This document shows, in pieces, positions 6,001 through 9,000 of a stretch of DNA of 15,821 nt. Each line of letters opens with the position of its first letter. Position 1 is the stretch's first letter. Position numbers: made by a program. The stretch is from positions 1 through 15,821 of IMG/VR virus record IMGVR_UViG_2537562194_000030. The stretch is one strand, 5' to 3'. This DNA is from a virus. Its lineage: Duplodnaviria > Heunggongvirae > Uroviricota > Caudoviricetes.

Positions 6001-9000
6001 AATGATGCAGAAGGGTATCTGGGGCTGTTTCGGGAAAAAATAGGAAAACTGCATCTGGCTCAGGGGCTGTGGGAGCTGATAGACAACAGCCAGCTTGCGG
6101 ATAAGATGGCGGAGATGAAGACCTCCATCACCGAAACCCGCAATGAAATCACACAGAGGGTCAGTAAAACGCTGGAGGACCAGAGCGCCACCATACAGCA
6201 GATACAGCGCGTGCAGAAGGACACAAATGATGACCTTGCTGCACTTTACATGCTGAAGGTACAGAATACAAAAAATGGCATACCCTATGTTGCCGGTATT
6301 GGAGCGGGGATTGAGGATACTGATGGCCAGCCCCTGAGCAACATACTGCTGCTGGCTGACCGTATCGCGATGATAAATCCGGAGAGCGGCAACAGCACGC
6401 CGTTATTTGTGGCGCAGGGGAATCAGCTGTTCATGAACGACGTGTTCCTGAAGCGACTGTTTGCGGTGAGTATCACGTCATCCGGCAACCCCCCGACGTT
6501 TTCCCTGACGCCGGAAGGGAAGCTGACAGCCAGGAACGCGGATATCAGCGGAGCAATTACCGCGAATACCGGCACGCTCAATAATGTCACCATTAACGAG
6601 AACTGTGTCATCAGAGGGAAACTGTCTGCAAACCAGATTGAAGGCGACCTGGTGAAGACGGTGGGGAAAGCCTTTCCCCGGAATAACAGTTATGCCAGCG
6701 GGACGGTAACCGTCACAGTTTACGATGACCAGGGCTTCGACCGGCAGATCATCATTCCCCCGGTGCTGTTTCGCGGGACGAAACACCAGAATTTCAACAG
6801 CCCGAATCAGCAGTCGTACTGGTATTCCACCTGTAAGCTGCAGGTGCTGAAGAACGGGGTTGAGATTTTCCATGAACCGGCAACGGATGTCAGCCGGGTG
6901 TTCTCATCGGTGATAGATATGCCGGCAGGGCGGGGTCATGTCACCCTGACGTTTAATGTGTCGTCGGCCGGTGCGAACAACTGGACGCCGACAACGTACA
7001 TCAGTGATTTACTGGTTGTGGTCATGAAAAAATCCACGGCAGGGATCAGTATCAGCTGACGGTTTATTAACCCGGACGGGCACCTCAGGAGGTGCCTTTT
7101 TTATTGACTGAAAACAAAGAGGTAATCATGCGGCATTTATACGCAACGATATTATTGTTTACTACCCTGCTGGCAGGAATTGCCTTTCCTGCACAGGCTG
7201 AAAGCGGACACGGTGCATTTTCCGTGGGATATGCTCAGGTTCACCCGGGCGGCGTACCGGCATTGTCCGGTACCGGTGCGCGTGCAGGTGATTTAAAAGG
7301 GATTAATGTGAAATACCGTTATGAGTTCACGGATCACCTGGGCGGCATTGTCGCGCTGAGTTATGCATCGGTGAAGAAAAGTGACACGATGAAGACGGGT
7401 GAAAATACCTTCCATTATGAAAGCCTGCGCGGTCGTTATGTCAGTCTGATGGCCGGCCCTGTCTGGCAGCTCAGTGAGCGGGTCAGTCTCTATGGCATGG
7501 CCGGGATGGCGTACACCCGCTGGTCTGACAGTGTTCAGGATTACCGGCGTGATGAAGTGAAACCGGGGTATGTGAAGGAGACCACCACCGCCAGTGATGG
7601 CCATACTGCGCGTCATCTGTCGCCGGCCTGGAATGCCGGGATTCAGTTCAGTCCCGTAGAGACGGTGGTTATTGACCTTGCTTATGAAGGTTCCGCCAGT
7701 GGCGACTGGCGCACTGACGGCTTCATCGTGGGTATCGGCTATAAATTCTGATTAGCCAGGTAACACAGTGTTATGACAGCCCGCCGGTTCAGGCGGGCTT
7801 TTTTGTGGGGTGAATATGGCAGTAAAGATTTCAGGTGTACTGAAAGACGGCACAGGAAAACCGGTAGAGAACTGCACCATTCAACTGAAAGCCAGACGGA
7901 CCAGCAGCACGGTGGTGGTGAACACGGTGGCCTCTGAAAATCCGGATGAAGCCGGTCGTTACAGCATGGACGTTGAGTACGGTCAGTACAGAGTCATTCT
8001 GTTGGTGGAAGGATTCCCGCCGTCACATGCCGGGACCATCACCGTGTATGAAGATTCTCAACCCGGTACGCTGAATGATTTTCTCGGTGCCATGTCGGAG
8101 GATGACGTCCGGCCGGAGGCACTGCGCCGTTTTGAACTGATGGTGGAAGAGGTGGCGCGTCACGCTGAGGAGGCGAAGAAGAATGCCGGAGAGGCGGAGA
8201 CGTCAGCGAGGAATGCCGGCATATCAGCCAGTCAGGCAGAAGAGAGCGCGGCAAATGCTGACACTTCAGCAGGGGAGGCATCGGAGTCAGCCCGGCAGGC
8301 GGCAGAAAGTGCAGCCTCAGCAAAGAAGTCAGAGGATGCGTCCTCGTCCTCGGCTTCTGCGGCCGCTCAAAAAGCCAGTGAGTCATCACAAAGTGCAGCA
8401 GAAGCTGAATTGTCAAGAAAGACGGCAGAAAGTGCAGCCGGTAATGCAGCCAGGGATGCAACGACCGCAACAGAAAAAGCCCGGGAGTCAGCAGAAAGCG
8501 CACAGTCAGCGGAACAAAGCAGGATAGCGGCGGAAGAAGCCGTAAACCGAATCCCCACCGTGGTGGGGCCTCCCGGGCCAAAGGGGGAACCGGGGCCCGC
8601 GGGTCCTCAGGGACCGAAGGGCGACCCGGGGGAGACACAAATACGGTTCCGTCTGGGGCGGGAAACATTATTGAGACAAACAGCCATGGCTGGTTCCCGG
8701 ATACAGATGGCGCACTCATCACCGGACTGACCTTTCTTGCCCCCAAAGATGCCACACGGGTTCAGGGTTTTTTTCAGCATTTGCAGGTCAGGTTTGGTGA
8801 CGGGCCGTGGCAGGATGTTAAGGGGCTGGATGAAGTGGGCAGTGATACAGGCAGAACAGGAGAATGACATGAACATACTAAAAAACTTATGCAGCGTCTG
8901 TGCGGTTGCGGAAAGCATGATGACCGTGAAAACGGGGAGTTACTTACAGCACAGCTGCGACTGGGACCGGCAGACATTCTGGAGTCAGATGAGAATGGCA

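Follow-up and report, generated by a model that had tools for sequence, protein, structure and literature searches.

The frameshift that splits the side tail fibre gene in the analysed DNA is very probably a consensus error at the end of a draft contig, where collapsed repeats gave a chimera, with the fibre gene intact in the dusA prophage itself. The window, by which we mean the whole stretch of 15,821 nucleotides, was found to be the start of contig AEZV02000028.1 from GCA_000194355.2, the draft genome of Escherichia coli O111:H- JB1-95. An exact look-up of the 304-aa fibre product returned only this contig of E. coli JB1-95. As the fibre ORF sits there at contig positions 7816-8730, window and contig coordinates are the same and the contig begins with the window. 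The deposited protein for this ORF is EIH91886.1, 'Escherichia coli JB1-95'. The AEZV sequence represents O111:H- JB1-95 and comes from the J. Craig Venter Institute (JCVI; PMC3359367). A literature search on the draft gave the serotype and the sequencing centre, and found no platform and no proof that JB1-95 is 95JB1, the strain with a finished genome.

ORFs were computed on the window, and gene names were borrowed from annotated relatives. The 15.8 kb correspond to the right arm of a lambdoid prophage of EHEC that has dusA as its integration site. On the plus strand the window carries the last part of tail gene L (1-354), an Arc/Arc/Ant cassette inserted before the next tail gene, K (about 355-2013), then K itself (2014-2757), I (2754-3335), J (3583-7059), lom (7128-7751), the Stf-like fibre ORF (7816-8730) and a small PF06820 gene (8869-9137). 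After the small gene follow, within 9241-15821, a truncated DUF1076/NleG-like remnant, espW (9850-10908, minus strand), an NleG-like gene (10987-11637, minus strand), espM2 (11820-12410, plus strand), a dinI-like gene, the integrase (13222-14319, minus strand) and, beyond it, dusA and then pspG. The stretch 9241-15821 is a typical exchangeable effector locus of a dusA-integrated prophage and is 100% identical to 95JB1. When the window ORFs were compared with annotated relatives, the same context of J, lom, fibre, small PF06820 gene and effector locus was found. Within the cassette, the ant gene (window 920-1965) is split into overlapping ORFs 920-1648 and 1540-1965. It is likewise annotated as frameshifted in finished 95JB1, to which the window is 100% identical at that position, and in contrast to the fibre lesion this frameshift looks real. 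J has an intact ORF, and the apparent indels in it at 5550-5712 were put down to noisy alignment over a diverged patch with a match in another prophage copy.

Three-frame translation confirmed that the Stf frame ends at 8730, with a frame-1 ORF running from ATG 7816 over 304 aa to TGA 8728-8730. Residues 1-133 matched PF08400 (E = 8.3e-69, 230 bits against a cut-off of 26.6). As the window reads, this N-terminus is in frame 1 and PF06820 is in frame 0, whereas the two domains share one frame in 6/6 intact homologues examined. The initial annotation had described an alternative frame opening at 8634 without a Met and had connected it to the fibre. This frame indeed runs without a Met to TGA 8865-8867, but it is open already from 8445. 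It does encode real fibre, except that the first eight codons of the proposed segment (8634-8657, DTNTVPSG) are outside the true protein. The roughly 30 codons of implausible sequence reported before the stop are out of frame only for the last 23 (8659-8727, RETLLRQ...SSPD), and a profile search gave no family match for these residues. The nine residues that follow the collagen-like tract in frame 1, ETQIRFRLG, are authentic, since all six intact homologues read ...GET-QIRFRLGPGNIIETNS... after the tract.

Restoring one C at the lesion gave a 350-aa protein with PF08400, eight Gly-X-Y triplets and a complete PF06820 domain at residues 276-339 (profile 1-64 of 64). The layout and the C-terminal sequence of the repaired protein agree with the intact homologues. 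The true fibre continuation then lies at 8659-8867 on the plus strand, where codons 8661-8867 of frame 0 read GNIIETNSHGW...GRTGE up to the stop and make up the PF06820 domain. That the downstream frame is the true tail-fibre C-terminus, as had been suspected, was supported by PF06820 both for the frame alone (E = 8.5e-33) and for the full-length protein after repair (E = 3e-36). NCBIfam held no useful family for the fibre or for the small-gene protein.

A legitimate end of the ORF at 8730, with the downstream frame as a separate gene or as non-coding DNA, would agree with the gene callers, which annotated the 304-aa product in the draft. However, this exact protein is confined to a single contig, and its last 23 residues are those that lack a family match. 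The alternative frame by itself reaches only PF06820 profile positions 6-64, and the domain, split over two frames, becomes complete only with the C restored. Because the domain is split in this way we regard a legitimate stop as excluded for practical purposes and very improbable. Intact homologues that stop where the ORF 7816-8730 does, that is with ...RETLLRQTAMAGSRIQMAHSSPD, were looked for and none was found.

The window was aligned with O111/O157 prophages, phage YYZ-2008, 95NR1 and the short-tract allele. The lesion was found to be one missing C adjoining C8659: homologues read GGGGCCGGG, and the window reads GGGGCGGG at 8655-8662 on the plus strand. The gene is therefore frameshifted as first noted, since a one-base loss relative to the intact homologues splits the fibre over two frames, and the one-base indel at 8659 divides the gene against its intact allele in the way known from lambda PaPa stf. 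In these alignments three differences were detected, namely a 270-nt shorter collagen tract (in frame), the loss of C at 8659 and the loss of an A at 8880-8885.

The initial annotation had placed the shift within the collagen-like tract and had named two G5 runs as plausible slippage sites. Both runs are present (8583-8587 and 8628-8632), but the lesion is at 8659 and both are identical in intact homologues. With no change at these runs in any relative, the shift falls outside the collagen tract, 21 nt downstream of its end. The same runs and GGGG at 8655-8658 lie near the overlap of the two frames, as a programmed ribosomal frameshift, or slipped-strand phase variation at G-rich runs, giving a full-length fibre would require. 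The run that changed is a C run, however, and not a G run. In all intact homologues a single uninterrupted ORF encodes the protein, the G5 runs are the same and the site reads CC, and the two-frame layout is conserved in 0/3070 copies. Programmed frameshifting or phase variation is thus effectively excluded, because the homologues are single ORFs with unchanged G runs, and we give it almost no credence.

The collagen-like tract (8566-8637, plus strand) consists of eight Gly-X-Y triplets, GPPGPKGEPGPAGPQGPKGDPGET, with a weak PF01391 match below the gathering cut-off. An identical tract is present in WP_086893282.1, an intact allele of 350 aa found in prophage B of 95NR1/95JB1 at 1.88 Mb. The short tract is a genuine natural allele, put here in the wrong prophage context. 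Contraction of the tract was considered as the cause of the frameshift and rejected, since a loss of 270 nt keeps the frame and the identical short tract occurs in an intact allele. A 17-nt direct repeat, CCTCAGGGNCCGAAGGG, is present in one copy in the window (8605-8621, plus strand). Long alleles carry two copies, at 2296 and 2566 (to 2582) in the long-allele reference sequence's own coordinates, and these bound the 270-nt, 30-triplet in-frame segment that is missing from the window, which suggests expansion and contraction via the repeat. The intact alleles seen had 8, 21, 37 or 38 Gly-X-Y triplets, so whole-triplet length variation is ordinary for this fibre gene.

The small gene downstream (8869-9137, plus strand) is in relatives a free-standing 89-aa PF06820 protein. 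In the window, A7 has become A6 (8880-8885), which shifts the frame after five codons. Translation from ATG 8889 still gives an open 82-aa version, the one called by the draft annotation. The A6 variant was found in 1/5717 copies in complete genomes, namely in O121 RM8352. The small gene is a paralogue of the fibre's own C-terminal domain (8640-8867); both are PF06820 and share 31% identity over 62 residues. It may serve as a chaperone, as an alternative fibre tip or in some other way.

The C deletion was searched for with a 79-nt megablast query in 635 complete E. coli genomes, and 0/3070 copies were identical across the site. Among the matches listed for this query, all were one base longer than the query. 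An exact 33-mer over the site gave 0 matches in species-representative genomes, IMG/VR and JGI metagenomes. With a 361-nt query over both deletion sites, the best place in 95JB1 keeps both extra bases. The 304-aa product falls into a protein cluster made up mostly of 'partial' fragments at the ends of contigs, indicating that the fibre gene routinely breaks short-read assemblies.

Strain 95JB1 is the Adelaide 1995 outbreak strain, and its finished genome was assembled from PacBio reads and indel-polished with Illumina reads (PMC6602927). JB1-95 and 95JB1 are apparently the same isolate, judging from their names, the O111:H- serotype and a prophage/chromosome junction that is identical over 6.9 kb. 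From 8886 to 15821 the window shows 100% identity with the end of the dusA prophage in finished 95JB1, and in the right-hand HSP all 12 differences are inside 8604-8879. The dusA prophage of 95JB1 (C, 4.97 Mb) has an intact 437-aa fibre gene, encoding PF08400, an Ala/Ser/Glu-rich stalk, 37 Gly-X-Y triplets and PF06820, as well as an intact 89-aa gene. The other fibre copies retrieved from 95JB1 (NZ_CP021335.1) are also intact, with 440 aa in prophage A (1.38 Mb) and 350 aa in prophage B (1.88 Mb), so that the intact-copy result covers three of about ten paralogous copies, each retrieved in full. Thus the lesion did not recur in any of these three copies when what is apparently the same strain was sequenced independently. 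The tape-measure gene of the dusA prophage is annotated in finished 95JB1 as a pseudogene with an internal stop, and this prophage is probably defective irrespective of its fibre gene.

The part of the draft contig that contains the repeated prophage genes (1-8900) is a patchwork of prophages A, B and C. When 1-9300 was painted against the three copies, 12 alternating blocks of 49-2105 nt were obtained, in the order A,C,A,C,A,C,A,C,A,C,B,C. Between a block and its own copy there are at most 3 mismatches, apart from a divergent patch at 101-250. Only this patch, position 15 and the 8658/8659 deletion agree with none of the copies, and the last painted block has the A-run deletion as its sole mismatch. 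Within 300-9300, the C deletion and A7 to A6 are the only differences unexplained by any copy. About 20 positions of the patch, in gene L, match none of the three retrieved 95JB1 copies, and a fourth paralogous copy probably contributed to the contig start at 101-250. As a contiguous sequence, window 1-8600 was matched by no complete genome at more than 96% identity (best 96.0%), and 95JB1 itself gave 95.1% over 94% of the query. The paralogue mosaic is resolved by the finished genome, to which the unique flank is identical. Such a block pattern is what an assembler puts out when multi-copy prophage modules collapse. A generally error-prone window was considered as well and rejected, since 300-2100 is 100% identical to many genomes and 8886-15821 to 95JB1, the errors being confined to the fibre stretch.

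We consider it unlikely that a genuine 1-base deletion inactivated the fibre in the JB1-95 stock sequenced at JCVI, in the manner of lambda PaPa stf and as a case of prophage decay. Such a deletion would agree with a clean 1-nt loss in an otherwise conserved gene. It would also agree with a dusA prophage that is already defective in the finished genome through the internal stop in its tape-measure gene, so that there would be no selection to keep the fibre, and with a real frameshift nearby in ant. However, the fibre gene is intact in both finished 95JB1 and 95NR1, and the deletion is shared by no other genome among the 635 complete ones. A second independent deletion 221 bp away and a 261-nt collagen contraction would be needed, together with about ten switches by gene conversion among prophages that lie 0.5-3.6 Mb from one another, all next to 6.9 kb with zero differences. 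The lambda-PaPa-like inactivation that the initial annotation had put forward as one option was thus not borne out, given that all recovered 95JB1 copies are intact and none of the 635 genomes has the deletion. Its other option, a sequencing error, is in line with the reading that we prefer. It appears more doubtful still, and we hold it to be distinctly improbable, that the JB1-95 stock at JCVI truly had the C deletion, the A7 to A6 change and the prophage mosaic together. If true, this would imply that co-resident lambdoid prophages recently underwent intense gene conversion in the laboratory lineage of an outbreak strain, and that the fibre module was freshly inactivated there.

A consensus error at a collapsed contig end, the explanation that we prefer, probably arose as follows. 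The contig starts in a lambdoid prophage tail module, of which the strain carries about ten near-identical copies, and extends to unique chromosome at dusA. The assembler probably threaded reads from several copies into one chimeric consensus. In the fibre-gene stretch this consensus dropped a base from a short C run flanked by G runs (CC to C at 8659) and a second base from the A7 run (8880-8885). As the proximate cause we infer a read-level or homopolymer error. The change from CC to C affects a run of only two bases and is a less classic homopolymer error than the change from A7 to A6. The same assembly difficulty has been described for the Adelaide outbreak strains, and SNPs in phage tail genes were called unreliable there, these genes being repetitive (PMC6602927).

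Intact Stf-like fibres of EHEC prophages include WP_086893282.1 (350 aa, 95NR1/95JB1), WP_000279033.1 (437 aa) and WP_106888400.1 (440 aa), and a further one is YP_002274206.1 of phage YYZ-2008 (389 aa). RefSeq names these fibres 'prophage tail fiber N-terminal domain-containing protein'. The window has the same gene, the same domain order and the same neighbours (J, lom, fibre, the 89-aa PF06820 gene and T3SS effector genes), and its repaired protein equals WP_086893282.1 in layout, length and 8-triplet tract. Unlike these fibres, the window copy is one C short at 8659 and reads as 304 aa. The window also joins the short collagen allele to the flank of the dusA prophage, where the finished genome has the 37-triplet allele.

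The best known relative of such a lesion is that of lambda PaPa, where Hendrix and Duda reportedly found in 1992 that a 1-bp deletion splits stf into orf-401 and orf-314. That lesion is a verified laboratory-strain mutation with a phenotype. As in lambda PaPa, a single-base deletion splits a side-tail-fibre homologue here, and PF08400 is the domain annotated on lambda-type prophage tail fibres. Unlike in lambda PaPa, the lesion of the window lies in a chimeric draft consensus and is absent from the independently finished genome of apparently the same strain. The window protein ends in a PF06820 domain after the collagen-like tract, whereas the C-terminal part of lambda Stf is much longer and different. 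The window resembles the draft errors of poly-lysogenic STEC genomes in its contig end within a prophage tail module, its block mosaic of paralogues, its indels in short mononucleotide runs and its error-free unique flank, and no difference in kind from such errors was found.

For users of the draft these results are a caution that EIH91886.1 (304 aa) and the surrounding gene models of AEZV02000028.1 are not a natural truncated tail fibre. The first approximately 9 kb of the contig are unfit for inferring prophage structure or recombination, because they are a chimera of at least three prophages. As the finished genome of apparently the same strain has the gene intact, the finding is an ordinary one and holds no new biology. 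The fibre gene belongs to a well-populated family of EHEC prophage Stf-like fibres that are built as PF08400, collagen-like tract and PF06820. An EHEC lambdoid Stf-like fibre that varies in collagen length in frame through short direct repeats was already known, as was the free-standing paralogue of its C-terminal domain that follows the fibre gene.
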